Origin: an uncultured virus (IMG/VR IMGVR_UViG_3300025530_000008)
Lineage: Duplodnaviria > Heunggongvirae > Uroviricota > Caudoviricetes > Herelleviridae
IMG/VR virus record: IMGVR_UViG_3300025530_000008
DNA length: 20,000 nt
Direction: 5' to 3' (one strand)
In this document: positions 2 to 15,852 of the stretch, in pieces
Layout: every line of letters begins with the position of its first letter
How positions within the stretch are numbered: position 1 is the first letter of the stretch
Made by a program: the position numbers and the translations under genes
The notes under the pieces: generated by a model
Seen by the model: the letters and a program-made list of their open reading frames with translations, nothing else
Database searches by the model: none
What the model was told of the DNA's origin: nothing

Positions 2-3000
2 ACGAGCTGGGGACTCACCCCGGATGTGCTGGAGATGCGACCGACGCGCATCGTCTACGGCCGGAGCCGGGAAGACATCCTGAAGTCGCTCGAGCCGCAT
101 GAATACGTCGGCAGCTTCGTTACGTTCGAAGACGGCGAAGTCGCTGCGCAGGTAACGGAGCTCACGCTGCCTGAAGGTCACGAACTTCGGAAGGCCTTTA
201 TGGACACGCTTCAGAAGGCCATGTTCCCGCACAAGGGAGCATCCAACGCCGAGATCAACAAGAAGGCGCAGGAATACGTACGGGCCAATAAACAGCGGTA
301 CGCCAGTCTGGCGGACCAGCAACTGGGACGTATCCGGGGAAAAGGCGGTAGCCTCACATGGTCTGAAGAACTTCTTCTGAAGAACCCGGGAAGCGCGTGG
401 ATCACGTGGGGCGGTAAACGCATCCTGATTAACACCGGGAACGGTGAGATCATATACGACTCCCGGAATGAGGCACACCGCGAGGACTACAACCAAGGGG
501 CGCAGGAAGACAAGATCGAGTTCCACCACGAGAAGGAAGCCGGCGTCAGTGAGGAAAACGCTCACGAGCACGACCACGGCATCCAAGCCTTCCGAAACGA
601 GTTCATGAACCGCATGCGGGACGAGTGGATCAAGAAGGAAGGCAACAAGATTGTCGGCGGAATAAAGGGAGAGTTTTTGCAACACAACTCGCACAAGGCA
701 CTGGACGTGTACCGCGACCTTTCGGATGAGGAACGGAAGGCACTTGATGACATGGGCGCCGACCGCGAGGCGAAAGCGGCGTTCCTCGGCGACCACTTCC
801 TGCGTAAAGAGGGCGTCATCGAAGCGCTCCAGCAATACCGGAACGGCGAGCTTTCGGAAGAAGACATTCGGCAGCGGCTGGCCGGTCTGGGGTCGCTGGC
901 GGGACGCAACTCGAAGATGATGGCTTCGTTCCTCGGCGACGTGAAGAAGCACGACCCGGCGACGGAGGAAGGGCTTAAGAAGCTGGCCGAATCGTTCGGT
1001 GCGAAAGAAATGACTCGTGCTGGCGAAGAAGCGAGCAAGAACCTTCTGCCGGAGGGCAAATACATGATTGGCAACCCGATTACGGGCAAAACCATGATTG
1101 TACACGTTGGCGGTGCCTTCACCGGCGGCCGCGGCAGCCGGAAGAAGGACGAGTCCGGCAAAGAGGAAAAAGGGAAGTACACTTCCGAAGTTCTCGAAGC
1201 GTTCGACCCGGATGGCCGCATCCATGAGACGATCAACACGTGGGGCGATCTCGGCCGGGCACTCGGCTACACGGGCAAAGAGGCAAGCGACCTGAAGGCG
1301 ACGCTGGTGGCACACGCCAACACGGCGCCGGATAAGCCGTTCATGCAGAAAATTTCGGATGAGGAATTCGCCCAGCACCGGGCGAAGACGAAAGCCGGGC
1401 TTCAGGAGTCCATGCTTCATAAAGATTTCCGGCTGGTCGACCAGACCCGGGACAAGGACGGCAACATCACGAGCCAGACCTTTGCTCAGAAGATGCCGGA
1501 CGGCACCATGAACCACATCACGGTCGACGGCAGCGGCCGGATTACGGACCCGCTGATGCGACGCCTGCTCAACCAGCGCGCACCGGTGACGAACGAGAAG
1601 GAACTGAACGAACTTCTGAAGAACGCGGTCGGCAACCGGGTATGGGTGACGGCACACTTCGGAAGCGACATCCACATCGGAGACGCGCTGGGCCATCACG
1701 TGCAACTGGAGTATGACGGAAAAGGCGCGCCGCGGGTAGTCGGCGGAAAGTACGACGGCTATCGGTACGTTGACCGCCGCGACATTCCGAAAGGCGCAAT
1801 CGACCCGGCAACGGGCGAGCCGGTAAAAGCGCTGTTCCGCAACGGCCGATTGGTTGATCGTCGATTTACGACGAAAAATGACGTGCCGATGCGGGAAGGT
1901 AATCCGGTCATGTACAGGGACGGCGACAGCTACAAGAAGGGCCGCATCTACTCCATCGAGGGCGACAACTACAAGATCACGGATGGCCAAGGGCACGTCA
2001 TCGGCATTTTCAAGAAGGAAGACCTGAAGCCGGCGAAGCAGGAAGGTCGCATGCTTTCGGAAGCCGGAACGGCCGTGCTGAAGGTAGCTCAGACCGGTAC
2101 GCACCGCTTGAACGTACAGGAAGCACTGGCTGACATGTCGAAGGGCCGCCGGAAGCTGCTTGAAGAAGCCCTTCAGAGGGCACACATCCAGCGCGCAGCA
2201 TTCGACTCCGACGGTAACCTTCGGAACGAGCTGGAGCTGTCGGATGCAGCGCACAAGCGGCTGAGCAAAATCCTCGGCCGGTCGAAAGCCGGACGGGAAA
2301 TCCTGTCGAAGTTCAACAGCGCCTACACGAAAGAACTGGAGCTGCATGTGCCGGAGCGCCTGCGGAGCGTGGTCGAAGCGGAAGGCGTCCGGGTGCTGGC
2401 AGACGGCACGGCGCGCATTTCGGCATCGAAGTTCGAACAACTTCGGGATGTGCTGAACAACGCCGGCAGCGGCATTTCGCTGACCTATCAAGCGCAGGAG
2501 CATTTGGCGGATCACTTCGCCCGCAAAGATCGTGTTCCGAAGGAAGTCAGCGAGCTGCGGAAGAAGTATCAGCCGTCGACGATTGAATCCGGCGACAAGG
2601 AATTCGACAAGCACTACAAGGCGCAGTTCAACGAGAAGTCGTACCTGATGGACCCGTCAAAAGGTCTGTACGGCACGCAGCTTGACGGCGTCTCGCACCT
2701 CATCGAGCGCGGCCGGGGCATTGCCGGCCACGGCATGGGTACGGGTAAGACGATCCTCGGCGTGGTTGCCGGCCTGCATACGAAAGCGCAGGCGCTTGCT
2801 CGGGGCGAGAAACCGAAGAAGACGCTTATCGTGGCGCCGAAGGGCATCATGTCGGACTGGGGCAAGGAAATCGCCACGCACACCAACAGCAAGGCGCTCT
2901 ATATCGGTGGCGCAAGCAGCTTCGCCGGAGCGAAGCGCGGCGAGGACGGTAAGCGCTACTGGGGCCAAGCCGGCACGGAGCAGGAAGCTGTCGACATTCG

Positions 3001-4897
3001 GAAGTTCAAGAAAGGCTCGCACGCCGGTCAAGATCACGACTTCCATATCGTCAGCTACGACACGTTCATGCGGAACCGCGACTTCTTCGCCAACAGCGGC
3101 GAGTACGACAACATCGTCATCGACGAAGTCCACGCCTTCAAGAACCAGAAAGGCAAGCGCGGCGCCGCGCTGGCGGAGACGACGGACAAGTTCAAGAACG
3201 TGTGGGGCCTGTCAGGTACGCCGATGGAGAATGATCCGCGTGAGATGCACGCATTGGTCGACACCATCACCGGCGGCCGGCACGAGCTCGGAAGCCTGCG
3301 GGAGTTCCAGAACAAGTACATGATGAAGGACCGCAACGGCAAGCTGGTCGGCATCAAGCCGAGCATGGCGGAAAAGCTGGGCGACATTCTGGCATCCATA
3401 GTGCAGTTCCGAAGCGGCGAGGACGTAACCTACAACGACGGCAGCAAGATTCGCTTCCCGCATCTGGTTGGTCAGCAATCGAATGATCCGGGACAGAATC
3501 CGAGTCCTCCGGTCGACTTCATCGGTGACATGGTCGACCGCAGCCGCGACCACCAGACGACGGATTACTACGGCACGAAGCACTCGATTACCGATTTCGA
3601 AACCAGTACGAAGCAGGTTACCAACGCGAAAAGCGGCGAAACCTACGAGGTCACCACGACGACGCCGAAGAATGTATCGCCGGAGCTGGCGGCCATGTAT
3701 GATACGTACAAGTCACTTGAAGCGAAGTACCTGCCAGCATCGAAGCTTAACGAGCTGGCGTCTGCGGCCGCAACAGGCATCGATCAAGGCCAGAAAGGTC
3801 AGTCGAACTACCTGACGGCCATGCAGAAGCTTCAGAAGTTCCTGAATGCACCGCTGGCGCACAAGATGTATGTCGAAGGCGGAAACGCAATCGATTCCGA
3901 CGCAACGGATGCGCAGGCGGAAAAGCCGGCGAAGGGTGGCGCCTCCGGTCTGGTCGAAGGCAAGCACTACATCGTCGACGAGAACGGCTTCAAGCGCTAC
4001 TTTGAAAGCGACGGCAAGGGCGGTTACCTGCGTAACCCGGACGGCAGCCCGAAGCTGCTGCCGCCGCTGCACAAGCAGAATCCGAAAGCGCAGTACCTGC
4101 AAGACCGGATTCACAAGTATCTGGATTCGCTCATGTTGGAGAACCGCCGTCGGGTAGCCCGCGGCGATAAGCCGCTGGTGCCGAAGGTTGTCGTGAAGTC
4201 GAACTACACGACGTTCGGCACAGACATCGTCGACAACGTGCTGAAGGAAGTCCGTAACACGCACCCGATCTTCGCCGAACTGGCGCGGCAGGGTTACACG
4301 AACTTGACCCACGGACAGTTCACCGGTGAAGCGAAGGACCGGGAAGAAACAAAGAGCGGCTTCCGCGGCAACAAGCACGACTACCTGAATAATCAGGGCA
4401 ACCTGTGGGCCACGACGGTTTCGCCGGCCGGTAAAGAAGGCGTTGACTTCGGAAACGCGCATCTGATGATCCACTACGATCAAGACTGGAACCCGCAGAA
4501 GATGGCGCAGTTTACGGCGCGCGTCCGGCGGTCGGACTCGGCGAAGACGCACGAGCAGGTCGGCCGGGCGAATGCGGTTCGGGTCGAATCGCTGCACGTT
4601 CCGAATACGGTCGAGGACTTCATCTTCAACGCGCAAGACGCGAAGATGCGTGCGATTCAGCACGTTGTCCAAAGCACCCGGGATGCAGAGGCCTTCCCGA
4701 AGCTCGGTGAAACCGAAGGCACGGTCGGTTACGGTGCCCGCGGATTCACCAGTCGCAAGCAGCCGCGTCAGCCGGTTGCACCGGCACGACCGGATAAAGC
4801 GCCGAGCATTCCAAAGCCCGGAAGCGGCGGAGCTGAAGTTCGGAAGCCCATGTTGGCGAGTGCTGACAAAGCACTGAAGTTAGTGGTACTCTTGTAG
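2..4897 (+). CDS. Giant multidomain protein with C-terminal SNF2/SWI2-family (SF2) ATPase/helicase; 5'-truncated; candidate virion-packaged (DarB-like) protein
   Basis: The frame is open from base 2, so the true start lies upstream. SF2 motifs: I GHGMGTGKT (~2726-2752), Ia LIVAPKGIMSDW, II VIDEVH (~3116-3133), III LSGTPMEN, V SPAGKEGVDF, DQDWNP, and a divergent VI QFTARVRR. A possible SH3/KOW-like segment lies at ~1890-2030. The ORF ends with tandem TAG TAG. Confidence 0.85.
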   Translation, partial: TSWGLTPDVLEMRPTRIVYGRSREDILKSLEPHEYVGSFVTFEDGEVAAQVTELTLPEGHELRKAFMDTLQKAMFPHKGASNAEINKKAQEYVRANKQRYASLADQQLGRIRGKGGSLTWSEELLLKNPGSAWITWGGKRILINTGNGEIIYDSRNEAHREDYNQGAQEDKIEFHHEKEAGVSEENAHEHDHGIQAFRNEFMNRMRDEWIKKEGNKIVGGIKGEFLQHNSHKALDVYRDLSDEERKALDDMGADREAKAAFLGDHFLRKEGVIEALQQYRNGELSEEDIRQRLAGLGSLAGRNSKMMASFLGDVKKHDPATEEGLKKLAESFGAKEMTRAGEEASKNLLPEGKYMIGNPITGKTMIVHVGGAFTGGRGSRKKDESGKEEKGKYTSEVLEAFDPDGRIHETINTWGDLGRALGYTGKEASDLKATLVAHANTAPDKPFMQKISDEEFAQHRAKTKAGLQESMLHKDFRLVDQTRDKDGNITSQTFAQKMPDGTMNHITVDGSGRITDPLMRRLLNQRAPVTNEKELNELLKNAVGNRVWVTAHFGSDIHIGDALGHHVQLEYDGKGAPRVVGGKYDGYRYVDRRDIPKGAIDPATGEPVKALFRNGRLVDRRFTTKNDVPMREGNPVMYRDGDSYKKGRIYSIEGDNYKITDGQGHVIGIFKKEDLKPAKQEGRMLSEAGTAVLKVAQTGTHRLNVQEALADMSKGRRKLLEEALQRAHIQRAAFDSDGNLRNELELSDAAHKRLSKILGRSKAGREILSKFNSAYTKELELHVPERLRSVVEAEGVRVLADGTARISASKFEQLRDVLNNAGSGISLTYQAQEHLADHFARKDRVPKEVSELRKKYQPSTIESGDKEFDKHYKAQFNEKSYLMDPSKGLYGTQLDGVSHLIERGRGIAGHGMGTGKTILGVVAGLHTKAQALARGEKPKKTLIVAPKGIMSDWGKEIATHTNSKALYIGGASSFAGAKRGEDGKRYWGQAGTEQEAVDIRKFKKGSHAGQDHDFHIVSYDTFMRNRDFFANSGEYDNIVIDEVHAFKNQKGKRGAALAETTDKFKNVWGLSGTPMENDPREMHALVDTITGGRHELGSLREFQNKYMMKDRNGKLVGIKPSMAEKLGDILASIVQFRSGEDVTYNDGSKIRFPHLVGQQSNDPGQNPSPPVDFIGDMVDRSRDHQTTDYYGTKHSITDFETSTKQVTNAKSGETYEVTTTTPKNVSPELAAMYDTYKSLEAKYLPASKLNELASAAATGIDQGQKGQSNYLTAMQKLQKFLNAPLAHKMYVEGGNAIDSDATDAQAEKPAKGGASGLVEGKHYIVDENGFKRYFESDGKGGYLRNPDGSPKLLPPLHKQNPKAQYLQDRIHKYLDSLMLENRRRVARGDKPLVPKVVVKSNYTTFGTDIVDNVLKEVRNTHPIFAELARQGYTNLTHGQFTGEAKDREETKSGFRGNKHDYLNNQGNLWATTVSPAGKEGVDFGNAHLMIHYDQDWNPQKMAQFTARVRRSDSAKTHEQVGRANAVRVESLHVPNTVEDFIFNAQDAKMRAIQHVVQSTRDAEAFPKLGETEGTVGYGARGFTSRKQPRQPVAPARPDKAPSIPKPGSGGAEVRKPMLASADKALKLVVLL

Positions 4898-4902
4898 TAG
4901 CA

Positions 4903-4930
4903 GAGCGGGGCGGAAATGCCCCGCTCCCTT
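4903..4930 (+). terminator. GC-rich hairpin after the SNF2 gene (possible weak terminator or stabiliser)
   Basis: 9-bp stem GAGCGGGGC (4903-4911) / GCCCCGCTC (4918-4926), followed by only a poor U-tract (CCTT). Confidence 0.5.
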
Positions 4931-4948
4931 AAGGGAGGGGGTAGGTAA

Positions 4949-5203
4949 GTGGCGGACCGGATGTTCGATACGGACTCATTTCTGGATGAGATTCAGACAC
5001 CGGAAGAAGCAAAAGCCTGCGTGGATTTCCTGACCGCGAACGAACGAATCTTCCGAAGACAGCTTATGGACGAGGGCCTGTCGCATGAGCAGGAAGAACA
5101 GGAAGTAAAGGCGGTCTGGACGAATCTCATCAAGGCCTGCCGCCGGGTCGGCTACAAAGACCCGTGGGTGGATGAGAAGGCAAAACGATACGGTGTAGGG
5201 TAA
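4949..5203 (+). CDS. Small acidic helical hypothetical protein (84 aa)
   Basis: GTG start after a G-rich SD region (AAGGGAGGGGGTAGG). Its stop overlaps the next SD (TAAGGAGG). Confidence 0.75.
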   Translation: MADRMFDTDSFLDEIQTPEEAKACVDFLTANERIFRRQLMDEGLSHEQEEQEVKAVWTNLIKACRRVGYKDPWVDEKAKRYGVG

Positions 5204-5216
5204 GGAGGTCTGGGCG

Positions 5217-5417
5217 GTGGTAAAATGCGAAGGCTGCGGGCGGATCATTCTTGACCAGACTTCGGAGGGATGGAAGCTGCGCACACGAATGCTGCTGTTC
5301 GAGCGCGGCGGTGCGTATGCGATATGTCCGTCTTGCAAGAAGGAAGTCAAGGTGCCTGTCGTATTGAACGATCCACCGCCCGCACTTCCGAAGACGAAAT
5401 TGTTGGTGAAAATTTGA
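5217..5417 (+). CDS. Small zinc-ribbon protein (CxxC...CxxC, 66 aa); architecture reminiscent of Mu Com-like regulators
   Basis: SD TAAGGAGGT at 5201-5209, GTG start, CEGC and CPSC motifs. Confidence 0.8.
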   Translation: MVKCEGCGRIILDQTSEGWKLRTRMLLFERGGAYAICPSCKKEVKVPVVLNDPPPALPKTKLLVKI

Positions 5418-5427
5418 AACAATATTA

Positions 5428-5456
5428 TTGACTAACTTCCGAAGTGGAAGTATATT
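5428..5456 (+). promoter_or_regulatory. Sigma-A/sigma-70-type promoter upstream of the structured RNA and head operon
   Basis: TTGACT (5428-5433), a 17-bp spacer, then TATATT (5451-5456). An AT-rich UP-like tract at 5409-5427 stands out in otherwise GC-rich DNA. The spacer contains CTTCCGAAG. Confidence 0.8.
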
Positions 5457-5462
5457 CAGAAT

Positions 5463-5600
5463 CAAAAGGGCAACGAAGTCCAACGAGGACAGCCCAAGAC
5501 GTGCATTTGTGGATCGTCCTTTACCAGCTCCTCGATCCACAAATGACATAGCCGTCCCCATCCCGCGGCTTACGTCTTGTGCTGTCCTCGTTGGATTTTT
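5463..5600 (+). ncRNA. Predicted structured RNA (three-way junction), either a discrete sRNA or a 5' leader
   Basis: Pairings: 5479-5493/5581-5595 (15 bp perfect), 5495-5502/5572-5579 (8 bp), 5504-5516/5533-5545 (13 bp, 16-nt loop) and 5550-5554/5566-5570 (5 bp, 11-nt loop). It ends in TTTTT at 5596-5600 and begins just downstream of the promoter. Confidence 0.65.
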
Positions 5601-5623
5601 GGCGGGGAAAGGTAGGTGATAAC

Positions 5624-7237
5624 ATGCGTTCCACGCTGGAAAACAACGACACTTACCATCTGTGGGTGCCCATTGAAGACGCCGACCTGATGAAGTCGGT
5701 CGAAGTCGATGAAAATGGCGACTGGATTGTTCGCGGCGTCATGACATCCGACGACAAGGACGAGGAAAACGACGTTATCAGCCCTGAAGGTATGGATTGC
5801 TCGTACTTCCTCGAGAAAGGCTGGATCAAATACGAGCACGGCAACAATCCGAACCAGTTCATCGGCGAACCGATCGCCGTCAAGGTAGGGCGCTTCAAGC
5901 ATCCGACACTCGACAAGTCGGTCAACGGCGTCTATGTCGAAGGCAGGCTGTACCGTAACCGCGAGCTTGCAAAGCAGGCCGTTCAAACGATCGAAGACCT
6001 TCAGAAGTCGAACACCAAACGGCGGATGGGTTGGTCGATCGAGGGCAGCGTGCGCGAGCGGTGCCGAAAGACCGGCAAAATCGTGAAATCCGTTCTTCGG
6101 AACGTGGTACTTACGATGAATCCGGTAAATACAATGACGTGGGTCGAACTGGCGAAGTCCTTCGCTAAAAACCACGAACTGACGATCGACATGCCGATGG
6201 ACAAGTCTCTTGACACCGGCGAAATGGCGGAAGTGACGCCGCAGTCGGTCGAGGGCGGGAGCAAGAAAGCTGTTCCCGAAGTAAGCGACGAGGCATGGAG
6301 CCGTCTTCTGCGCGCTTTCGTTGAAAGCGACGAAGACGATATCCATAAATCCGTGGACTCGCCGGGAAGTTTGGCCATGAAGGCCTTCGCCTTTGCCAAA
6401 CTGAAAGGCTTCAACTACGACGACGCCTACACTTTCGGTGCGTTCGTCAAGCAAAACCACGGGAAAATTCGGCTCTTAATCAAGAGCCATGGGGGTGAGA
6501 CGATGAGCAAGCAAACGGGTGTGCTCGACACGGCGCTGGAGGAACTGGAGAAGGCGCTGGACATCGAAGCTGTGCAGGACGAGGACGAGCTGCTGAAATC
6601 GCAATCTTCCGAAGATGACGAGGAAGATTACGAGGACGACAGCGAGGACTACGAAGACGCCGACGAGGACAGTGACGAGGACAGCGACGAGGACAGCGAC
6701 GAGGACAGCGACGAGGACAGCGACGAGGAAGGCGACGGCGAAGGTTTTGCGAAGTCCTTCAGCAAGGACAGCACGGTGCAGCAAGCGCTGGAAGTCTCGG
6801 ACTTCCTGTCCAGACTCGTCGACGAAGTCGGCTACTCGATCGACACCGTGAACAAGTCCCTGAGCAGCGTAAGCCGTCAGCAAAGCGCACTTCTGAAGGC
6901 ATTCAAGGCCGTTGGCGAACAGCTCCGCGACCTTGCGGAAGAAAACGCTGAGCTGAAGAAATCCTTCGAAGAACTGCTGAATCGTCCGATCGGGCGCCGC
7001 GGCGTAACGTCGACGCGGGAAGTCCAAACCATCACGAAGGGCTTCAATCTGGGTCCGCAGCCGATGGAAGGCAAGCTGACGAGAGCGAGAGTGCTCGCCG
7101 AGCTGAATAAATCGTTCGAAGCCGGCAACTACAGCCTCGGCGAAGAAATCATGCGCTACGAGGCGGGTGTTCCGCTCGAGAACTTGAACCTTCCGCACGA
7201 GCTGCGCGTGAAGTTCGGCCTCGCATCGGCTGAATAA
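5624..7237 (+). CDS. Prohead protease fused to an acidic scaffold-like domain (537 aa)
   Basis: The ATG at 5624 follows SD AAAGGTAGGTGAT and is preferred over the track's 5579 start. Herpes/HK97-type protease signatures: D-x-E-N-D, IKYEH, GWSIEG and VVLTMNPVN. The C-terminal half is acidic/coiled-coil, and the gene lies directly before the capsid gene. Confidence 0.85.
   Translation: MRSTLENNDTYHLWVPIEDADLMKSVEVDENGDWIVRGVMTSDDKDEENDVISPEGMDCSYFLEKGWIKYEHGNNPNQFIGEPIAVKVGRFKHPTLDKSVNGVYVEGRLYRNRELAKQAVQTIEDLQKSNTKRRMGWSIEGSVRERCRKTGKIVKSVLRNVVLTMNPVNTMTWVELAKSFAKNHELTIDMPMDKSLDTGEMAEVTPQSVEGGSKKAVPEVSDEAWSRLLRAFVESDEDDIHKSVDSPGSLAMKAFAFAKLKGFNYDDAYTFGAFVKQNHGKIRLLIKSHGGETMSKQTGVLDTALEELEKALDIEAVQDEDELLKSQSSEDDEEDYEDDSEDYEDADEDSDEDSDEDSDEDSDEDSDEEGDGEGFAKSFSKDSTVQQALEVSDFLSRLVDEVGYSIDTVNKSLSSVSRQQSALLKAFKAVGEQLRDLAEENAELKKSFEELLNRPIGRRGVTSTREVQTITKGFNLGPQPMEGKLTRARVLAELNKSFEAGNYSLGEEIMRYEAGVPLENLNLPHELRVKFGLASAE
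6503..7237 (+). CDS. Putative nested in-frame scaffolding protein (244 aa) from an internal start
   Basis: Strong SD GGGGGTGA (6491-6498) shortly before an in-frame ATG at 6503 (MSKQTGVLDTALEELEKAL...). Confidence 0.65.
   Translation: MSKQTGVLDTALEELEKALDIEAVQDEDELLKSQSSEDDEEDYEDDSEDYEDADEDSDEDSDEDSDEDSDEDSDEEGDGEGFAKSFSKDSTVQQALEVSDFLSRLVDEVGYSIDTVNKSLSSVSRQQSALLKAFKAVGEQLRDLAEENAELKKSFEELLNRPIGRRGVTSTREVQTITKGFNLGPQPMEGKLTRARVLAELNKSFEAGNYSLGEEIMRYEAGVPLENLNLPHELRVKFGLASAE
6662..6727 (+). repeat. 12-bp tandem repeat GACGAGGACAGY x5 encoding (DEDS)n in the scaffold
   Basis: Directly visible in the sequence. Confidence 0.95.
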
Positions 7238-7270
7238 TCCATTAGCCTAAGAGAAAGGGGAGAACGCGAC

Positions 7271-8776
7271 ATGTTGGGTGTTATGGACCCGCAAGTTACC
7301 GAAGGCTTCGGTGTATCGTCGGTAGAACAACTCGACGAGCTTCAGAAGGCCCTCGGTACTGGTCAGGATGGCGAAGCATATGGCAATGGTGCCTATGCTG
7401 ACATGTCCGCTATCCGTCCGCAGTCGCTTGAAGGTACGCTCAAGGTCGTGACTGCGAAAGACCAGCACATCAAGTTCTGGAAATCTATCGGCAAGAAGAA
7501 AGCATTCAACACGGTCGAAGAATTCAACGTATTGGACAGCTACGGTGGGGATTCGTCTCCGTTCTTCGTTGAAGGCGGCCTGCCGAACGAAGAAGATTCG
7601 AACTTCATCCGCCAAGCGCAATACGTGAAGTATCTCGGTACGACTCGTGTTATCACGCATCCGGCAACGCTGGTGCGCAACACGATCGGTGATATCGTAG
7701 CGCAACAAACGCGCGACGGTACGCAATGGCTGCTGATGCAACTGGAGCGTGCCCTGTACTTCGCGGATTCTTCGTTGAACCCGCTGGCATTCGACGGTGT
7801 CATTGCGCAAGTGAAGAACTTCGTCGCAGGCAAGCCGTATGAAAACCAACACATCATCGACATGCGGGGCAACCCGCTGGATGAATTCACACTGGAAGAC
7901 ATCGCGACGATCGTACTGGACAACTACGGCAACCCGAGCCTCGAGCTGCACATGACCAACCAAGTGCACAAGGACCTGTCGAAGATCGTCCTCGGTACGA
8001 CGGCGAACGGCGTGTACAACGGCCGTCAGCGTGTCGACAATCCGGGTGAAGGCATCCGACTCGGTCAGCCGGTAACCGGCTATCAAGCAAACGCGGCCTC
8101 GATCCAGTTCGTCAACAACATCTTCCTGAAGCCGCTGGGCGCACCGAAAGCTGCTTCGCAAAAAGGCGCACCGGCTGTTCCGACCATCACGGGTATCGCT
8201 GCACCGGTTGACGCTGTGGAAGATGCGACGAGCAAGATGACGGCCGGCACGTATCACTACTTCGTGTCCGCAGTCAACAGCCAAGGCGAATCCGCACCGG
8301 TTTACGCTGGCAGCGTAGCTGTCGCATCCGGCCAACGTGCAGACATCACGATCAACCGGGTAGTCACCGACCCGGCGGCACTGACGTACCGCGTATATCG
8401 AGGCGTAACGAGCAACGCTTCCGAAGCGCAATTCGCTTTCGAAGTGAAGGATGTAGGCGGTACGGAGCCGACGCAAGTGATCTCGGACCGGAACTTCGAC
8501 ATTCCGGGCACGCATACGGCAATCCTGATCGACAACGATCCCGACCAAGTGCTGTGCTTCAAACAGCTTGCACCGCTCATGAAGATGCCGCTGGCGCGCA
8601 TCAGCGCTTCGGAACGCTTCATGATCCTGCTGTACGGCATGGTTCAGGTCTACAACCCGCGCCGGATCGTCGTCATCAAGAACATCGGCGTGCAAGGCAT
8701 CAACAGCAACCGTCCGCTGTTCGGTCCGACCTACGGTGCGACGAGCTTCGGCACGATCAAGCCCGTTGCGCGCTAA
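7271..8776 (+). CDS. Major capsid protein, SPO1/Twort/A511-like (501 aa precursor)
   Basis: SD AAAGGGGAG. The N-terminus ELQKALGTG...AIRPQSLEGTLK and motifs such as VEEF and LERALYFADS resemble Herelleviridae capsid proteins. There is a beta-rich insertion (YHYFVSAVNSQGESAP), and the gene follows the protease/scaffold. Confidence 0.9.
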   Translation: MLGVMDPQVTEGFGVSSVEQLDELQKALGTGQDGEAYGNGAYADMSAIRPQSLEGTLKVVTAKDQHIKFWKSIGKKKAFNTVEEFNVLDSYGGDSSPFFVEGGLPNEEDSNFIRQAQYVKYLGTTRVITHPATLVRNTIGDIVAQQTRDGTQWLLMQLERALYFADSSLNPLAFDGVIAQVKNFVAGKPYENQHIIDMRGNPLDEFTLEDIATIVLDNYGNPSLELHMTNQVHKDLSKIVLGTTANGVYNGRQRVDNPGEGIRLGQPVTGYQANAASIQFVNNIFLKPLGAPKAASQKGAPAVPTITGIAAPVDAVEDATSKMTAGTYHYFVSAVNSQGESAPVYAGSVAVASGQRADITINRVVTDPAALTYRVYRGVTSNASEAQFAFEVKDVGGTEPTQVISDRNFDIPGTHTAILIDNDPDQVLCFKQLAPLMKMPLARISASERFMILLYGMVQVYNPRRIVVIKNIGVQGINSNRPLFGPTYGATSFGTIKPVAR

Positions 8777-8792
8777 GCCGCAGACATCTACA

Positions 8793-8830
8793 GAGAGGAA
8801 GGGCAGGGCTCCGTCCAAGCCCTTCCTTTC
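8793..8830 (+). terminator. Stem-loop after the capsid gene (probable terminator/attenuator)
   Basis: GAGAGGAAGGGC (8793-8804) pairs with GCCCTTCCTTTC (8819-8830). The position after the major capsid gene is typical. Confidence 0.55.
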
Positions 8831-8864
8831 GACTATTATCAAGCATTTAAGGAGCTGAATCGCT

Positions 8865-9422
8865 ATGTCGGCTATCAAAGTCAGAAAGATCGTCGGCCGG
8901 TTCCCGGAGACGGTCAAGATTTGTGGAGAGCTCGTGGTGTTCAGCGAGAACGGCGTCGCTTCTGTTTCGGAAAAGGTTGCCGAGTTCTTGAAGGAGCACC
9001 TGTCGCATGAATACCTGTTCGCCAATGAAGATGGCACGTTCCCGGCGCCGGAAGAAGCTGCATCGGCAGCCGCAGCACCGAAAGTGGTCTCGGACGAGGA
9101 ACGCGACCTGCGCGGCGAACTGGCGCGCGCGAGGGCAGCCAACGCTGACCTTACGGCTGAGCTTCAGAAGGCACAAGAGAAAATTAAGGCACTGGAGGCA
9201 GAGGTTGCGGAGCTGAAGAAAGCTGCTGAAGCTGCTGAAGCTGCTGAAGCTGCTGAAGCTGCTGAAGCTGCTGAAGCTGCTGAAGCTGCTGAAGCTGCTG
9301 AAGCTGCTGAAGCTTCTTCGACCTTGCCCGCAGCACCGGCAGCACCGGCAGCACCGGCAGCACCGGCAGCACCCACGCGCCGCACGCCGGCCAAACCGGC
9401 AGCCCCGAAGAAGGAGGGGTAA
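8865..9422 (+). CDS. Hypothetical head-associated protein with coiled coil and (AAE)10/(PAA)n low-complexity tail
   Basis: SD AAGGAG, 185 aa, located between the capsid and neck genes. Confidence 0.75.
   Translation: MSAIKVRKIVGRFPETVKICGELVVFSENGVASVSEKVAEFLKEHLSHEYLFANEDGTFPAPEEAASAAAAPKVVSDEERDLRGELARARAANADLTAELQKAQEKIKALEAEVAELKKAAEAAEAAEAAEAAEAAEAAEAAEAAEAAEASSTLPAAPAAPAAPAAPAAPTRRTPAKPAAPKKEG
9222..9311 (+). repeat. Perfect 9-bp tandem repeat GCTGCTGAA x10
   Basis: Directly visible; encodes (AAE)10. Confidence 0.97.
9330..9374 (+). repeat. 9-bp tandem repeat GCAGCACCG x5 (last copy ends in C)
   Basis: Directly visible; encodes (AAP)5. Confidence 0.95.
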
Positions 9423-9425
9423 TAC

Positions 9426-9698
9426 ATGCCTGTATTTGGCTTCCGAAGTCATGCCGTGTTCGAGGGCGTAACCGAAGGCGTACTCGACTCGCACGGCGCC
9501 TATCTGTACGCGGAAGTGACCAATGACGGACAATCGGATGTCTACTTCTTCCCGAATCCGATCCTCCCGAGTGGCATAGCGAACCCGGCTGTTCCGGCCG
9601 GCATCCCGATTAAGGCCGGAACGACGCGGGCAATTCCGATGTCGCTGTACACCTTCAAAGCGAGTGGTCCGGTCACGGTGGTCGCTTACCGCTCGTAA
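9426..9698 (+). CDS. Small beta-rich virion protein (90 aa), possibly head decoration
   Basis: SD AAGGAGGG, with ATG 3 nt after the upstream stop. Function is inferred only from position and composition. Confidence 0.7.
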   Translation: MPVFGFRSHAVFEGVTEGVLDSHGAYLYAEVTNDGQSDVYFFPNPILPSGIANPAVPAGIPIKAGTTRAIPMSLYTFKASGPVTVVAYRS

Positions 9699-9710
9699 GG
9701 AGTGGACCCT

Positions 9711-10613
9711 ATGCCGAAGTACACGAAAGTTGTTCCGTACTGGGAAGTCGAGGAAATCGACGACGGACAGGGCGGGACGATCAAAAAGTATAAGTCCACG
9801 ACGAACCTTCCGAGCCCGGACGACGTTCGCCGGCAGTGGTGCTTCGGCCTTCCGCTGGCTACCGAAGACGGAACGCCGATGACGGACGAGGACATCATCT
9901 CCTTTATGAACGGCGCAATCGCCCGCATGGAGCGTGAGCTGGGAGTCTTCCTAAAGCCGACGATTATCGCGTGCAACGGCGAGATGCGCGGGCTCGAGCC
10001 CGGCGTGGACTTCGACATCGAGGAACCGCCGTATGATTACGACTACAAGCAGTGGTTCAACTACGGATTCCTCCAACTGCGGCATCGTCCGGTCATCGAG
10101 CTGCACGAGTTCAAGCTGATACTTCCAAATAACCAGATCATCTTCGACTTCATGACGAAGCCGGAGTGGCTGAAGACCAACCCGCGCTCCGGGCAAGTCA
10201 GGATTGTGCCGTATGCCGGCGATCCGACGATCTTCAGCCTTGCAGGATCGTCGCTTTCCGGCTATCCGTTCTTGACCGGATTGATTCAGACGAACGTGCC
10301 ACAGATGATCTTCGCCTCGTATGTCGCAGGCTTCGAGCTCGGCCAGATTCCGAGTGACATCGTTACGGCTGTCGGCAAGATGGCAGCTATCGACATTCTG
10401 GGCGTCGCTGGCGACGCCGTCATGGTCGGTATTGCCGGCATGTCGACATCCATCGACGGTCTGAGCGAGTCCGTCAGCCTGACGGCATCCGCAACGTCAG
10501 CCACCTACGGCGCGCACATCAAACAGTTGCAGGACGAAGTGAAGGACTTCTTCAGCGCGAAATCCGGCAACATCCGGTCTGCGGTGCGCGGCGTCACGTT
10601 TACCGTACTGTAA
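9711..10613 (+). CDS. Head-tail adaptor/neck protein (300 aa)
   Basis: SD AAGGAG at 9697-9702 favours ATG 9711. Motifs EPPYDYD, FLQLRHRPV, PQMIFASYVAG, GIAGMSTSIDGLSES and SATYGAHIKQL resemble the first neck protein of SPO1/Twort-like phages. Confidence 0.75.
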   Translation: MPKYTKVVPYWEVEEIDDGQGGTIKKYKSTTNLPSPDDVRRQWCFGLPLATEDGTPMTDEDIISFMNGAIARMERELGVFLKPTIIACNGEMRGLEPGVDFDIEEPPYDYDYKQWFNYGFLQLRHRPVIELHEFKLILPNNQIIFDFMTKPEWLKTNPRSGQVRIVPYAGDPTIFSLAGSSLSGYPFLTGLIQTNVPQMIFASYVAGFELGQIPSDIVTAVGKMAAIDILGVAGDAVMVGIAGMSTSIDGLSESVSLTASATSATYGAHIKQLQDEVKDFFSAKSGNIRSAVRGVTFTVL

Positions 10614-10627
10614 AGGAGGGATAAGCG

Positions 10628-11383
10628 GTGTCGGATGTGGGTAATGCAATTCGGAAGATACGCCTGCATGGCGACCGCTTCGAAGACCTTATCTATCGGC
10701 GCGGACGTGACGTGTTGTGGGAAGAAGGCATTCTGTGCTCGTGCTGGAACATGGACAGCCAGCAGCCGAGGTACGATTGCGCCGCCTGCAACGGCCGGGG
10801 ACGCATCTTCAAGCCGCCGGTACTGAGCCGGGTGCTGCTGACCAGCATCACGCAGAACGCCGAGTTCGAGGAAACGGCGGGTATGTTCCATGTCGGCGAC
10901 GCCGTCATGACGGTTCCGAAGTACATGTACAAGCGGAACGACGACGGAACGTTCAACATGAACGTAAAAGAGATCGTTCCGGCGTACAACGTCGGCATGT
11001 TCGACATCATCACCGTCACAGACGATGACTATAAATCTTCTGAAGTCCTGATCCGCAATCAGCCGATGTACCAGAGGCCGGCGGACACACTACTGAATGA
11101 TCACATCATCGACATTCAGGTCGTGCGCAAGACCGACCCGGTGACGGGAGAGATTATCGACTACGAGCCGGATGTCGACTACACACACGAGAACAACCGC
11201 ATCGTATGGCTGCCCGGCGGAAGATCGCCGGAAGATGGGGAGCAGTATAGCGTCACTTACCACCACAGGCCGTCATTCACGGTCCTGACAACACTTCCGA
11301 AGCCCCGCTATCAGGACGGCCAGCTTCTGCCGCGTTATGTGGTGCTGCGATACCGGGCGGCGGGTTTTGAGAAGCCGGTATGA
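10628..11383 (+). CDS. Head closure/neck protein with CxC...CxxC zinc-binding motif (251 aa)
   Basis: SD AAAGGAGG, GTG start. WEEGILCSC...CAACNGRG is typical of the second neck protein in this phage group. Confidence 0.75.
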   Translation: MSDVGNAIRKIRLHGDRFEDLIYRRGRDVLWEEGILCSCWNMDSQQPRYDCAACNGRGRIFKPPVLSRVLLTSITQNAEFEETAGMFHVGDAVMTVPKYMYKRNDDGTFNMNVKEIVPAYNVGMFDIITVTDDDYKSSEVLIRNQPMYQRPADTLLNDHIIDIQVVRKTDPVTGEIIDYEPDVDYTHENNRIVWLPGGRSPEDGEQYSVTYHHRPSFTVLTTLPKPRYQDGQLLPRYVVLRYRAAGFEKPV

Positions 11384-12231
11384 GCCTACTGACGATCTCC
11401 GCCGAGCTTCCGAATCTGGATACGATCATTTCGAATCTGGAATCGGCGGGCTCGAGCGGGCAAAAGCTCCCTTTTACCAAAGAGGCCATACGAGCAGCCA
11501 CGGTCGATGTCATTCAGCGCACGTGGATTCAGTACGCATCCGGCGCTTACGTCACGTACAGCGGTGGAAGCTTCCGCATCAACGTGGTGACCGGCGAATA
11601 TGTCCGCAGCATTCAGGACGGCGTTCGTTTTCCGAACGACCTGACGGGTGAAGTGTTCACGACCAGCCCGCACGGTGAGTCTATTGAGAAGGGGCAGCGC
11701 CCGCGGGATATGAAGCAAGCGCTGCTGTCCTCGCCGAAAGCGAAGAAGGGCAAGAACGGAAGCCGGTACATCACGATTCCGTTCCGGCACGGAACGCCCG
11801 GCGCGACGACAATTCCGGCTATGCCCCGGGCCGTTTATAACGCTGCCCGGCGGCTCGGCTACACCCGGCGGGAGCAGGGGTTGACTGGAGACGCCCGTGT
11901 TTATGTTTGGGGCGGACGGTACAGTCAGGGTGTGGAGCGCGACGCACAGTACGGCATGCGGACGCACATCGGCGCTCACCCGGGGGCCGGCTATCAGCAC
12001 AAAAGCGGTATCTATGAGGGCATGGTTCGCATGGGACGGCCGGGGCATTCGCAGTACATGACCTTCCGAAGGGTGTCGGATAAGTCCGACCCGCGGAGCT
12101 GGATGCATCCCGGAACGCCGCCGCGCCCGATCCGCGAAGCGGTTGTCGAGAATACGAAGGAAGAAGTGCTTCAGCTCATCCGGCGCGGATTCGAAATGGA
12201 CCTTTACTTTATGGGATTGGGGGGAAGCTGA
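11380..12231 (+). CDS. Basic neck/tail-completion protein (283 aa)
   Basis: ATGA overlap with the upstream gene. Motifs KKGKNGSRYITIPFRH and YMTFRRVSDKSDPRSWMHPG; synteny. Confidence 0.7.
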   Translation: MSLLTISAELPNLDTIISNLESAGSSGQKLPFTKEAIRAATVDVIQRTWIQYASGAYVTYSGGSFRINVVTGEYVRSIQDGVRFPNDLTGEVFTTSPHGESIEKGQRPRDMKQALLSSPKAKKGKNGSRYITIPFRHGTPGATTIPAMPRAVYNAARRLGYTRREQGLTGDARVYVWGGRYSQGVERDAQYGMRTHIGAHPGAGYQHKSGIYEGMVRMGRPGHSQYMTFRRVSDKSDPRSWMHPGTPPRPIREAVVENTKEEVLQLIRRGFEMDLYFMGLGGS

Positions 12232-12782
12232 TGGCTGACATTGAGTTCGACTACGCCACAATAGACGTGAAGCAGGAATTGGTCGACATTCTAAAAGCCC
12301 AGCTTCCGAAAAAGGGCTTCGGGGATGTCCGCGTCCTGAAGTCCGATCCTGCCCTACCAAGCGAGCTGCCATGCATTGGCATCAACCGAATATCCGACGA
12401 CGAAACGCAAATGTCCATCGGTGACAGCATCGGTGCTTCTTACGACGGAACTGGAGAGTTCCGGCACCAGCAGGGCACGTTCTTCAATGAGTCCATGGAA
12501 GTCCGCATCTGGCACACGAACGCCGACCAGCGCGACGCACTTTACCTTACACTGCGCGCGATCCTGTTCGCGTTCCGGCTGCCGCTGGTTGAGAAAGGGC
12601 TTCGTAATGTCACGCTTCGCATGGGCAGGGACGAGCAGGACAGCACCATGCAGTTTGCTCCGAGCGTTATCTACTGGAGCACCATTACCCTGACTTATGC
12701 GAATCCGCTCAACGTCGATATCATCGAAGATGTCGAGCCGATCTCGGCGGTCATCGATAATGGCACTGTGGAAGGAGGATGA
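12231..12782 (+). CDS. Probable tail terminator/tail completion protein (183 aa)
   Basis: TGATG overlap, acidic composition, LPCIGINRISDDE motif, and position just before the sheath gene. Confidence 0.65.
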   Translation: MADIEFDYATIDVKQELVDILKAQLPKKGFGDVRVLKSDPALPSELPCIGINRISDDETQMSIGDSIGASYDGTGEFRHQQGTFFNESMEVRIWHTNADQRDALYLTLRAILFAFRLPLVEKGLRNVTLRMGRDEQDSTMQFAPSVIYWSTITLTYANPLNVDIIEDVEPISAVIDNGTVEGG

Positions 12783-12787
12783 CGGAT

Positions 12788-13108
12788 ATGAGTAAGCGGA
12801 GCACGAAGACGCAGAAGGGCCAACAGCGCAAGGCTGTACAGGAGCCTGTAGCCGCAGAACTTCCGAAGGCGGAAGACAGCCCTCAGCCTTCCGAAGTGAA
12901 CGGAGGCGGGAGTAAATTAGCGTCGACGCAAGCTTCGGAAGACTGTAAAATTACGTTTGAAGGGTACTTGCGGCGGGTATCGGTACGCCCCGGACTGGTC
13001 GCAAGCTTCAAGGCGGAGGCTGCCAACACTCCGGGCGCGCTGGACCCGAAAACAGCGGAGGAATGGGCCGCAGCCTTCGAAAAGCAAGCAAAACGGGTGT
13101 ATCCGTAA
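12788..13108 (+). CDS. Hypothetical protein (106 aa) preceding the sheath gene
   Basis: SD AAGGAGG at 12772-12778 favours ATG 12788 over 12779. Disordered N-half and helical C-half. Confidence 0.65.
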   Translation: MSKRSTKTQKGQQRKAVQEPVAAELPKAEDSPQPSEVNGGGSKLASTQASEDCKITFEGYLRRVSVRPGLVASFKAEAANTPGALDPKTAEEWAAAFEKQAKRVYP

Positions 13109-13132
13109 AGTCCGTAAAGGAGGGTATCAGCT

Positions 13133-14521
13133 ATGGCAATCAACATCTCGTTTGGCGGAACGACCATCCAGCGCCCGGGTGCTTTTGCGATTGTGGATAC
13201 AGCGAACATGGTTCCGGTCTCGCTGGGCGCACTCCGCAGTTTGGCCGTAATCGGCGTGATGGATGAGTCCGCCTCGCTGGCGCCGGGTCGTGCCTACGCC
13301 TTCACGGAGCCTTCCGAAGCGCGTAAAGCGCTGACGCAGGGCGAGCTGCTGGATGTGATGTACACCGCATGGCAGCATGGCGCCAACCTGATCTACGTTG
13401 TGCCGGTAAACAAACCGGTAGCCGCCAGCATCACGCTGAAGGACAACGACGAAGAATCCCCGGCCGATGTACTGAAGCTGACGGCACGTGCCCATGGCAC
13501 GAAAGGCAACGGCATCACGGTGGAAGTCGCAAACAACGACCTTATCGTGGCGTTCGACGGGAGGTCGGAGTCCTACGATGCGACGAAGACGGTTGAAGAA
13601 CTTGCAGCACTCGTCAACGCCAGCAGCGCGCTCGTAACGGCTGAAGTGGTTGGTTCCGGTACCGCAGTTCTCGGCACGCTGGCCGAAACGAATCTGTCGG
13701 GTGGCGGCGCAGGCGCACCGGTCACGGACAGCGACTGGGAAGAAGCGCTGGAAGTGCTCGAGCAGATCGAAGTGGACGGCCTGATCCCGGTCACGACAGC
13801 ACAAGCCATTCAGGCGAAGGTCGATGCGCATGTACAGGCTATGTCGAACATCCACAACCGCCGTCGTCGCCGGGCATTCTACGGCCACGCTGTAGGCGAG
13901 TCCATTGAAAACATCAAGAATCTTGCTGCTGCGCTGAATAACGAACGCGCGCTGCTGGCCACGCCTTGTCCGATGGTAGCGGACTCCAGCGGCAACCGAG
14001 TAACGAAGCCGTCGTACTACACGGCAGCGGCCGTAGCCGGTATTTGGTCCGGTCAAGAGCCGCAGGAGCCTGTTACCTATAAGGCGGTCAAGTTCGCAGG
14101 GCTCGAGAAGCAGTACAAGCCGACGGAAATCGTCGAACTTCTGAATGCGCACGTCTGCGTCGTCGAAGTGGTGAAGAACGGCGGATACCGGATCGTGCAG
14201 GGCATTACGACTTCGTCCTCGGCCGACCTGACGCAAGCTGAACTGTCGGTATCGACGCTGAAGGACATTATGTCCGAAAATCTTGAAACGCACTTCGAGA
14301 ACAAGTACGTCGGCAAAGCTGGCGTCCGCGGCGTCGAAATCACGATGTACAACGATCTGGTATCGATGCTGGAGCAGTTCGTATCGAGCGGCCTGATTGC
14401 CGGATACGTTGCGGATTCCGTCAAAGTCACGCGGAACGGTACGACGTTTAATCTGGAATGGCAGGGCACGCCGACGCTCCCGATCAACAACTTCCTCATC
14501 ACGACCAGCCTGACCCTGTAA
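13133..14521 (+). CDS. Contractile tail sheath protein (462 aa)
   Basis: SD AAAGGAGGG. N-terminal FGGTTIQRPG; ARAHGTKGNGITVEV, NLSGG, AAAVAG...EPVTYK and YRIVQGITT are sheath-type motifs. Confidence 0.9.
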   Translation: MAINISFGGTTIQRPGAFAIVDTANMVPVSLGALRSLAVIGVMDESASLAPGRAYAFTEPSEARKALTQGELLDVMYTAWQHGANLIYVVPVNKPVAASITLKDNDEESPADVLKLTARAHGTKGNGITVEVANNDLIVAFDGRSESYDATKTVEELAALVNASSALVTAEVVGSGTAVLGTLAETNLSGGGAGAPVTDSDWEEALEVLEQIEVDGLIPVTTAQAIQAKVDAHVQAMSNIHNRRRRRAFYGHAVGESIENIKNLAAALNNERALLATPCPMVADSSGNRVTKPSYYTAAAVAGIWSGQEPQEPVTYKAVKFAGLEKQYKPTEIVELLNAHVCVVEVVKNGGYRIVQGITTSSSADLTQAELSVSTLKDIMSENLETHFENKYVGKAGVRGVEITMYNDLVSMLEQFVSSGLIAGYVADSVKVTRNGTTFNLEWQGTPTLPINNFLITTSLTL

Positions 14522-14564
14522 TGAGTCGGCTGGAACCTATACCATGTAAAGGGGGAAGCAGGAA

Positions 14565-15002
14565 ATGGCAAGCGTAAATCAGCAATCGGTGCACTCCGGC
14601 CACACAATTCGCCTGAAGGTAAACGGGCAGGAGATCGGACGCGCCCAGTCGATCAGCGGCCGGCGCTCGTTCGGCGTTGAGGGTGTGTACGAAATCGGCT
14701 CCATCATGCCGAACGAGCACGTGGCACTCCGGTATGACGGATCGGTGACGCTGGAAAAGTACCGCATCCGCCAACGCTCGCTGAAGCAACTGGGTCTGGC
14801 CGCCCTCGGTATCGGTATCCTGCAAATGGGCGTCATCGACATCGAGGTTACGGACATCTACACCGGAGAAATCGTCATGGTCTACCGGGGATGTACGCTC
14901 GCAGAAAGCTCCGAGGACTTCCGGGCGAACGCGTTCGCCGGCGAGCAGGCAACGTGGTACTACCTGTCGGCTGACCAAGGCGTCGCCGAAACGGTAGCGT
15001 AA
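14565..15002 (+). CDS. Tail tube protein (145 aa)
   Basis: MASVNQQSVHSGHTI...IGRAQSISGRRSFGVEGVYEIGSIMPNEHVALRYDGSVTL closely resembles Herelleviridae tube proteins; follows the sheath gene. Confidence 0.9.
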   Translation: MASVNQQSVHSGHTIRLKVNGQEIGRAQSISGRRSFGVEGVYEIGSIMPNEHVALRYDGSVTLEKYRIRQRSLKQLGLAALGIGILQMGVIDIEVTDIYTGEIVMVYRGCTLAESSEDFRANAFAGEQATWYYLSADQGVAETVA

Positions 15003-15023
15003 CGATCAATCTTCCGAAGACCG

Positions 15024-15060
15024 AAACATCTCCTATCCGTTTGGGTGGGAGATGTTTTAT
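15024..15060 (+). terminator. Intrinsic terminator after the tail tube gene
   Basis: AAACATCTCCTATCC (15024-15038) / GGGTGGGAGATGTTT (15043-15057), with a GTTT loop and a TTTTAT tail. Confidence 0.75.
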
Positions 15061-15077
15061 AATTGGAGAGAAATCAT

Positions 15078-15596
15078 ATGAAAGGGATGGTAAAGGTGAA
15101 AAACGAGGTTTATCAAGAAAACATGGAGAAGGTCAAGGCGCTCATGGAGGCCCAAAAGAACGTTCAGCTCGCCGGAAACCTTCGGAAGACGGTACATATC
15201 GACTTCACATCTCCCGAAGGCAACACGTACAAAGGCGACGTGACGTTCAAGCGCCTTACGGTAGGCGACATGCTGCGCGTGGAAGCGCTCGTGGCTGAGT
15301 ACTTCCGAAAGGCGGGCGTGACCGACATCCGCTTCATCGACGAGAATGCGAAGTTCCACGCGCGTGTCATGGCAACGCTCCGCGTCGCTATGGTGGATAT
15401 GCCGGACTGGCTGCGCGACATGGAAAAGTTGACGGAAATTGAGATCATCTACCATGTGTACGGCCAGTACCGTAACTGGGAGGACTCCTTTCTCGTCCGA
15501 AGTGCAGCAACTGCTTCCGATGATGGTTCGGATTCCGAAGGAGCGGAAGCTTTGGATGCTTCGGAAGCATCTGTACGGGGGAATTCCGCCGACTGA
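15078..15596 (+). CDS. Tail assembly chaperone (short form)
   Basis: Lies between the tube and tape measure genes. SD GGAGAG precedes ATG 15078, although the exact start is uncertain. Contains the PDWL...YGQYRNWEDSF pattern. Confidence 0.75.
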   Translation: MKGMVKVKNEVYQENMEKVKALMEAQKNVQLAGNLRKTVHIDFTSPEGNTYKGDVTFKRLTVGDMLRVEALVAEYFRKAGVTDIRFIDENAKFHARVMATLRVAMVDMPDWLRDMEKLTEIEIIYHVYGQYRNWEDSFLVRSAATASDDGSDSEGAEALDASEASVRGNSAD

Positions 15597-15813: not shown

Positions 15814-15852
15814 AGCTGGCGCCTTCCCAGTCCCTTGCAGGGGGTGTTCTCC

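Follow-up and report, generated by a model that had tools for sequence, protein, structure and literature searches.

A leader RNA with two competing folds before the head genes of an uncultured virus, a likely terminator/antiterminator switch adjoining a zinc-ribbon gene

The leader RNA in front of the head genes of an uncultured virus is likely a terminator/antiterminator switch that is off by default, and we infer that a zinc-ribbon protein encoded upstream binds its 5' hairpin and thereby permits read-through. The structure at positions 5463-5600 of the window (the whole stretch of 20,000 nucleotides analysed here, which is the final 20 kb of a 76.6-kb virus record) is real and selected, and both of its overlapping folds are backed by covariation. 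The leader is located between a gene for a 66-aa CxxC-x29-CxxC protein and a protease-scaffold gene, behind which capsid, neck, sheath, tube and tape-measure genes follow, all on the same strand. Judged by the protease, the nearest cultured relatives are Herelleviridae-type phages (identity of at most 37%). The features of the locus are:

5217-5417, plus strand: gene for the 66-aa zinc-ribbon protein, CxxC-x29-CxxC with a basic K-L-R-T-R strand (open reading frame; weak phrog_2834 match)
5428-5456, plus strand: sigmaA-type promoter TTGACT-17-TATATT (consensus scoring; similar hexamer pairs in relatives)
5436-5444, no strand assigned: palindrome CTTCCGAAG between the promoter hexamers (90 copies contig-wide)
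5468-5495, plus strand: state A, predicted antiterminator hairpin (found in 21/21 phage leaders)
5475-5599, plus strand: state B, long closing stem, predicted terminator hairpin (folding and covariation)
5504-5545, plus strand: apical hairpin with the conserved loop core ACCAGCUC at 5523-5530 (core RCCARCUC in 19/21 phage leaders)
5550-5570, plus strand: side hairpin, variable and dispensable (second internal hairpin in only 9/21 leaders)
5596-5600, plus strand: U5 tract, predicted termination site (sequence; homologue tails)
5610-5619, plus strand: Shine-Dalgarno-like AGGTAGGTGA (sequence)
5624-7237, plus strand: prohead protease-scaffold fusion, first gene behind the leader (phrog_1028, E 5e-46; phrog_15087, E 4e-13)
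7271-8776, plus strand: major capsid protein (phrog_752, E 1e-76; further PHROG hits for later genes)

The promoter, presumably active, is the top sigma70/sigmaA-type site of the window and agrees with the consensus at 10 of 12 positions. Similar hexamer pairs are present upstream in the relatives, 12 of 23 fitting a strict script pattern and the rest being seen by eye. The palindrome in its spacer is not required for the leader; it is absent from L154, L155, L029, L117, the prophage-type relatives and the 8 bacterial loci described below. The 90 copies of CTTC(C/G)GAAG in the 76.6 kb compare with 3-10 expected under Markov models of order 2-4; they lie mostly within genes (over the whole contig; positions 185-19205 in the window), and the word is enriched in most close relatives.

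Folding of 5463-5600 gave a minimum free energy of -72.2 kcal/mol (z = -10.5), and 0 of 200 shuffles folded as well. In state B, a lower helix pairs 5475-5493 with 5581-5599 over 19 bp (15 bp when the four pairs formed with the U tract are left out) and, above a mismatch at 5494/5580, an upper helix pairs 5495-5503 with 5571-5579 over 9 bp. Within it are the apical hairpin (5504-5516/5533-5545, 13 bp, 16-nt loop) and the side hairpin (5550-5555/5565-5570, 6 bp), and the U5 tract sits 23 nt ahead of the ATG at 5624. The initial annotation of this region had described the near-consensus sigma-A promoter, the overall fold with its 13-bp hairpin, the U5 tract at that distance from the protease start and two pyrimidine-rich loops, all of which recur in our analysis; its helix sizes need correction, the 8-bp helix having 9 bp, the 5-bp hairpin 6 bp and the 15-bp helix 19 bp with the U-tract pairs. 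Its view that the element is neither a tRNA nor a known riboswitch agrees with a tRNA scan of the window element, which found none, and with the Rfam 15 covariance models, none of which matched over this element (E up to 5) or over the leaders of 15 related loci (E up to 1). Two features had been overlooked, the zinc-ribbon gene (5217-5417) and the 5' hairpin (5468-5495) that competes with the long stem.

This hairpin, state A, consists of P1 (5468-5471/5492-5495) and P2 (5478-5481/5487-5490), separated by the internal loop AACGAA (5472-5477) opposite A5491. It shares the 5' strand of the long stem, and since the same bases cannot serve both folds, the RNA is a two-state element. In the window, the predicted probability of state A is 0.86-0.98 before the 3' strand emerges. 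A second pairing with the AACGAA internal loop, specific to the window, spans 5468-5520 (with TGGAT-C-GTCCTTT near 5510-5522, 7 + 5 bp) and is probably due to chance. Contigs from two metatranscriptomes flank the leader and miss its stem (those of X1 are without 5483-5617 and those of X2 without 5327-5589); contigs are uninformative on transcript ends, strand and level, the stops of the two differ, a short X1 piece has adapter ends, and the gap was not counted as evidence. The same applies to the depth step; run X5, of unrecorded kind, covers 5207-5600 at a depth of 3.3.

Homologues were gathered by protease-anchored and pattern searches. After duplicate merging these gave 21 distinct leaders including the window, with L132-L144 not taken in and two divergent leaders with a different internal loop (L029 and L117) kept apart; pattern matches in L040, L043, L052, L055 and L058 were dropped as chance hits because the fold or the gene context was missing. 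The state A hairpin, with an AACNAR loop opposite a single purine, is found in every one of the 21, the register in the window being set by hand to that common to the other 20. In this register 98.2% of the cells are paired (28-49% in slid registers) and 6 of 8 pairs show compensatory changes, which 0 of 500 shuffles matched, a significance that is overstated because the fold was derived from the same related sequences and the shuffle controls ignore relatedness. It is the individual compensatory changes, and not the shuffle statistics, that carry the evidence for state A; these include GUCC/GGAC to AUCC/GGAU as well as GGGC/GCCC to GAGC/GCUC, GGAC/GUCC and CUAUAC/GUAUAG. For state B, 94.7% of the cells are paired, 14 of 18 pairs are compensatory and RNAalifold recovers the same stem. 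In 6 sequences, for example, a change in alignment column 42 is accompanied by changes in both column 15 and column 181. The check for covariation among homologues that the initial annotation had called for is therefore positive for both folds.

The strongest sequence conservation lies 5' of the stem, in a region that is unpaired in the three-way-junction fold. The side hairpin of that fold is absent from 12 of the 21 homologues and its loop sequence occurs in the window only, and the three-way junction is not the conserved unit and is only one of two states. Nor is the suggested likeness to phi29 pRNA, a three-way junction with two complementary loops, borne out, the second arm being that same dispensable hairpin and the loops of the window both being pyrimidine-rich. 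HDV-like ribozymes have an invariant GG before a conserved junction and P1/P3 elements upstream; this candidate was rejected, as GGGC is changed in 6/21 leaders, with the downstream partner co-changing in three of four P1 pairs, and the window promoter leaves about 5 nt upstream for P1/P3 elements. A reading without any switch, in which the long stem serves to process or stabilise a read-through head mRNA (as an RNase III-type site), is very improbable: a long duplex with one conserved imperfection would suit such a role, but neither the covariation of the competing 5' hairpin nor the association with the zinc ribbon and with short classical terminators would be explained.

According to the energy predictions, state B is favoured at equilibrium in all 21 leaders, by 3.8-23 kcal/mol. 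When only the hairpin has emerged, state A has a predicted probability of at least 0.5 in 14/21 leaders and below 0.5 in 7/21, and it is predicted to be replaced once the 3' strand is complete. In 17 of the 21 long stems the third or fourth position of the 3' strand of P1 is mismatched, at the distal end of P1; this mismatch may be the entry point of the invading strand and, by analogy with the ZTP riboswitch (10.1101/521930), act as a kinetic brake. In the proposed switch, the host sigmaA polymerase would initiate near 5463, early, at the promoter seen in the sequence, and the 5' hairpin with its AACNAR/R loop is predicted to form first. The apical stem would then fold and zip down, its 3' strand crossing the conserved mismatch and displacing P1 and P2, which would complete the terminator; covariation backs these pairings, and the kinetics are those we infer. 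By default, the long stem and the U tract would end the transcript near 5600, before the head and tail genes. Gene linkage suggests how the switch would be opened: the zinc ribbon, whose gene closes the upstream operon, would accumulate and hold the hairpin against the invading strand, and the protease, capsid and tail genes would be turned on.

A translational switch operating in the phages is an unlikely explanation. In that case state B would free the ribosome-binding site and a repressor (e.g. free protease-scaffold) would hold state A, the released pyrimidine-rich strand then covering the Shine-Dalgarno sequence. Scaffold autoregulation in P22 is a precedent for this, and forcing state A raises the predicted opening cost of the ribosome-binding site in 17/21 leaders, by at least 2 kcal/mol in 15 of them (values without a shuffle control). 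Moreover, the long stem ends 24-42 nt ahead of the start codon in all 21 leaders, and the U tracts are weak in several phages. However, the window itself shows no such increase (10.3 to 9.3), pairing with the Shine-Dalgarno sequence is to be expected of any complement of a purine-rich strand once it is freed, and the bacterial homologues carry strong terminators far from the gene. As the bacterial terminator lies more than 300 nt before the annotated gene, with extra hairpins in between, in the loci where this distance was read (L183, L184 and L188), termination is favoured over translation control. The capsid-gene attenuator offered as one option in the initial annotation gains support from the two overlapping covarying folds and the terminator-bearing homologues, and the anti-Shine-Dalgarno loops it had proposed find none: the apical loop beats 95% of the shuffles against the cognate Shine-Dalgarno sequence in only 4/19 leaders, and not in the window (fraction 0.52). 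Short hairpins covering the Shine-Dalgarno sequence are predicted 3' of the long stem in L013, L147, L151, L152, L155, L012 and L049, and not in the window.

Several points speak against the terminator/antiterminator switch. In the phages the U tract is often weak, an 8-nt stretch holding fewer than 5 U in 8/21 leaders (two of these being register artefacts), the window is without the TTNTTT that follows the stem in 12/21 leaders, the long phage stem closes an insert of 50-110 nt, and the L095/L108 leader has no zinc-ribbon match. In addition, state A is marginal in the 7/21 leaders mentioned above, the zinc ribbon matches no known RNA-binding fold and the switch does not account for the apical loop. 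In the available text of PMC8060035, the NusG/NusA-stimulated terminators of B. subtilis typically combine a weak A-U stem base with an interrupted U tract, and long terminator stems and single interruptions are tolerated according to the accessible part of PMC10325885.

The apical loop core is kept while the flanking stems vary; it is missing in L154, whose stem insert is only about 40 nt, in L155, L029 and L117, and in all 7 bacterial leaders. No conserved complement at a fixed place in the loci was found that could serve as its cis partner. The switch does not explain this loop, for which an sRNA or processivity role may exist. Its conservation, together with the leader's own promoter, terminator-like end and very stable fold, would fit a discrete RNA of ~135 nt (sRNA or structural) as the main product, in which the RCCARCUC loop acts in trans and the 5' hairpin only tunes the amount. 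We regard this as quite improbable, given the leaders in which the loop is missing and the fixed-position complement that was not found. Furthermore, the hairpin is single-copy in its own contig, and four near-complete relatives have one copy apiece; its place is always immediately ahead of the protease gene. The hairpin search models are insensitive to distant forms and missed the true, divergent leader of G005; a weak hairpin match in the same genome lies inside a gene and was rejected as a second copy.

In prophage-type relatives, whose protease is 61-69% identical, the protease gene is not preceded by a leader. Five Paenibacillus genomes or records of this kind, which bear a prophage with the protease and are incomplete, yielded neither the RNA nor the zinc ribbon. 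Three distant phages (L123, L200 and L201) keep the order of zinc ribbon, promoter, hairpin overlapping a longer stem and protease, with other sequences, as judged by folding only; the U run after the stem is U6 in L200 and short in L123 and L201. In L159 the gene of a distant protease relative (29%) is likewise preceded by a promoter and by a leader that contains a U6 terminator (620-790).

In 19 of the 21 loci the zinc-ribbon gene was found upstream of the leader; its distance to the hairpin is 47-93 nt in 17 of these and 540 nt in the other two. No zinc-ribbon match was obtained for L095/L108, either in the locus or in the 80-kb record (83% complete), or for L156 within the 780 nt of sequence at hand. 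The leader at L095:2330-2457 (= L108, L150) is the most diverged of the phage leaders, with a weak tail, a state gap of 8 kcal/mol and unrelated genes inserted upstream. The protein family comprises 87 close and 289 distant representatives (E up to 0.001). The four Cys are invariant and the basic strand is conserved; R24, C37, P38, C40 and K41 are invariant in 86 homologues. The predicted model is a small all-beta domain (pLDDT 93). Structure searches of PDB and BFVD returned no match at E 0.001 or better (best VIA Z 2.5) and none to a known RNA-binding fold, and the best E value of a PDB sequence search was 1.3. The top ESM Atlas matches (0.93-0.94) are to clusters that are unnamed or labelled Mut7-C and share fewer than 170 features, to be read as leads only, and a search with P0102 gave knuckle-level matches only. 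In P0099, P0133, P0152 and P0221 a zinc-ribbon homologue forms the N-terminus of a longer protein, and two of these end, by eye, in an apparent receiver-type domain; they could be signal-controlled versions or assembly artefacts.

A tblastn search against cultured phages and plasmids gave no match to the zinc ribbon. It was likewise not found in 401 genomes sampled across the phylum, and among 301 genomes sampled from the class it was present in the centre genome only. Among 401 genomes of the order around a Paenibacillus genome there were 8 strong matches, all within one family sample (136 genomes). The hairpin pattern was found in 7 of these 136 genomes, one copy each, all among the 8 protein carriers; it was absent from the 128 family genomes without the protein and from all 129 genomes beyond the seven, and as it was derived from the same 7 loci it is circular there and tested by the 129 misses only. 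Judged by the type of downstream gene, the 7 genomes come from about two lineages; the phage sequences, too, are related to one another, so that these counts are not independent events. In viral contigs the bacterial-type pattern had 0 matches.

In these loci (L182-L186, L188 and L189, from genomes G228, G306, G246, G149, G242, G147 and G072) a sigmaA-type promoter comes after the zinc-ribbon gene, and behind it the same hairpin, with the loop GC/AC-RAYNAR opposite G; L186 carries the exact CAACGAAGTCC word of the window. The hairpin overlaps a classical intrinsic terminator with U6-U9, as seen by folding and sequence, and state B of the bacterial copies is plainly of the terminator type. Genes within 1.5 kb are not phage genes; in the 5 of 7 loci scanned, secreted LTD/Big_5 or OB-fold/DUF5689 proteins are encoded downstream. 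The protein and the RNA appear to travel together while the regulated gene changes. In the eighth carrier (L187:1492-1740) the 3' end of the zinc-ribbon gene is replaced and there is a different terminator and no leader, which looks like a broken cassette.

The zinc ribbon likely flips the switch, because its gene adjoins the leader even in bacterial chromosomes with unrelated downstream genes. The least unlikely of the alternatives keeps the terminator/antiterminator switch and assigns the stabilisation of the 5' hairpin to another ligand (a phage or host protein, a small molecule or an ion), with the zinc ribbon acting otherwise, e.g. on promoter DNA. It would account for L095/L108, which keeps the hairpin with full compensatory changes and where no zinc ribbon was found; linkage is also no proof of binding, and the protein matches no known RNA-binding fold. 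On the other hand, the zinc-ribbon gene lies upstream of the promoter, and is thus not regulated by the leader, yet stays attached to it across phage and bacterial contexts with differing downstream genes, and the hairpin pattern occurs in 0/128 genomes without the protein.

Among known systems, the BglG/SacY/LicT proteins act on the RAT, a small internal-loop hairpin that overlaps the 5' strand of a terminator; termination is the default and the protein stabilises a weak hairpin. The leader resembles this in that its antiterminator hairpin overlaps the 5' strand of an intrinsic terminator (by covariation and folding, the termination being predicted). It differs in its 66-aa CCCC zinc ribbon, which has no CAT or PRD Pfam match, in a leader without Rfam match, in its targets (phage head genes or secreted proteins) and in the insert closed by the phage terminator; it would work like BglG/RAT antitermination without being a member of that system. 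Late antitermination by lambda Q at pR' acts through a DNA site. With Q, and with the RinA late activators (PMC3152322), the leader system shares a regulator gene next to a late promoter and the timing of morphogenesis genes, whereas the sites there are DNA and here there is a conserved, covarying RNA fold.

Mu Com, in the available text of PMC6483171, is a small zinc finger of the CCCC type; it binds a short hairpin in RNA that adjoins an inhibitory structure, and it activates mom translation. The leader system would likewise combine a CCCC zinc ribbon, here a putative binder, with a hairpin next to an inhibitory structure in late phage gene control. An hhalign comparison of the zinc ribbon with Mu Com showed a weak likeness (78.6% and 84.7%), driven by the Cys knuckles; phrog_13819 (gpCom) was matched weakly by 1 of 10 homologues and phrog_6417 by 4 of 10, one homologue is named 'phage FluMu protein Com' by its source, and the Com Pfam family is not among the first 25 families listed for the zinc ribbon. 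The Cys spacing is 29 residues in contrast to 17 in Com, the CC(N)2-3GAG loop motif given for Com in the same part of PMC6483171 is found in only 2/21 phage leader hairpins (the window and L008), and the predicted output is termination rather than release of the start codon. Forcing state A lowers the predicted opening cost of the ribosome-binding site in only 4/21 leaders, by at most 1 kcal/mol, so that no freeing of the Shine-Dalgarno sequence or start codon is indicated. The pair is not Mu Com/mom as far as that system is described in PMC6483171.

The cATT zipper attenuator of pLS20, according to the accessible text of PMC13401043, has a long stem that is an antiterminator when zipped and a 5' hairpin that favours termination, for which a binding protein was proposed. 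Common to both are a weak conserved 5' hairpin, a long imperfect zipping stem, a terminator and the guarding of a long operon of a Gram-positive mobile element. The polarity is opposite to that in this account, the zipped stem of the leader being the predicted terminator whose formation the 5' hairpin would prevent, and the U tract follows the zipped stem itself, with no separate downstream terminator hairpin. In the ligand-gated ZTP (pfl) riboswitch, as presented in the available part of 10.1101/521930, completion of the terminator requires strand displacement through an earlier fold, as the leader's terminator also must; the leader differs from it in having no pfl/Rfam match or pseudoknot and in a ligand that would be a protein.

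More tentatively, but as a serious possibility, the zinc ribbons of ~65 aa and the RAYNAR-loop hairpin may form a new RNA-binding antiterminator family, a portable two-part switch with which Bacillota phages would set when their head and tail genes are expressed from a host sigmaA promoter, and which some Paenibacillus-related bacteria would have taken over for large secreted proteins; the phage apical loop would provide a second signal, either for processive read-through or for some role of the ~135-nt RNA that termination leaves. The main known ways of switching on late genes in Gram-positive phages are activators that bind DNA and phage sigma factors. If true, an attenuator in the leader that a zinc ribbon opens would be a different solution, and an unannotated protein family (the 289 representatives above) would gain a function. 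The bacterial copies are short, clean versions (about 60 nt) in cultivable-type hosts, which makes the claim easily testable, and a 66-aa protein with a 28-nt hairpin would be a compact orthogonal switch for Gram-positive synthetic biology. No description of the zinc-ribbon/leader pair was found in the literature searched, in which subscription papers are thinly covered, and an uncurated motif may be among the 224 RNA motifs of PMC5737381.

Further observations concern the gene order of the window. A gene for a 1623-aa SNF2-type helicase (26-4897) is located inside the head module, a position kept in the relatives, and is followed by a G+C-rich hairpin with no U tract (4903-4926); another G+C-rich, terminator-like hairpin with a short U run follows the capsid gene (8801-8828). 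Each could be a processing site or a terminator. Two overlapping open reading frames in different frames (15063-15813) both match tail assembly chaperone families, which may point to a programmed frameshift.
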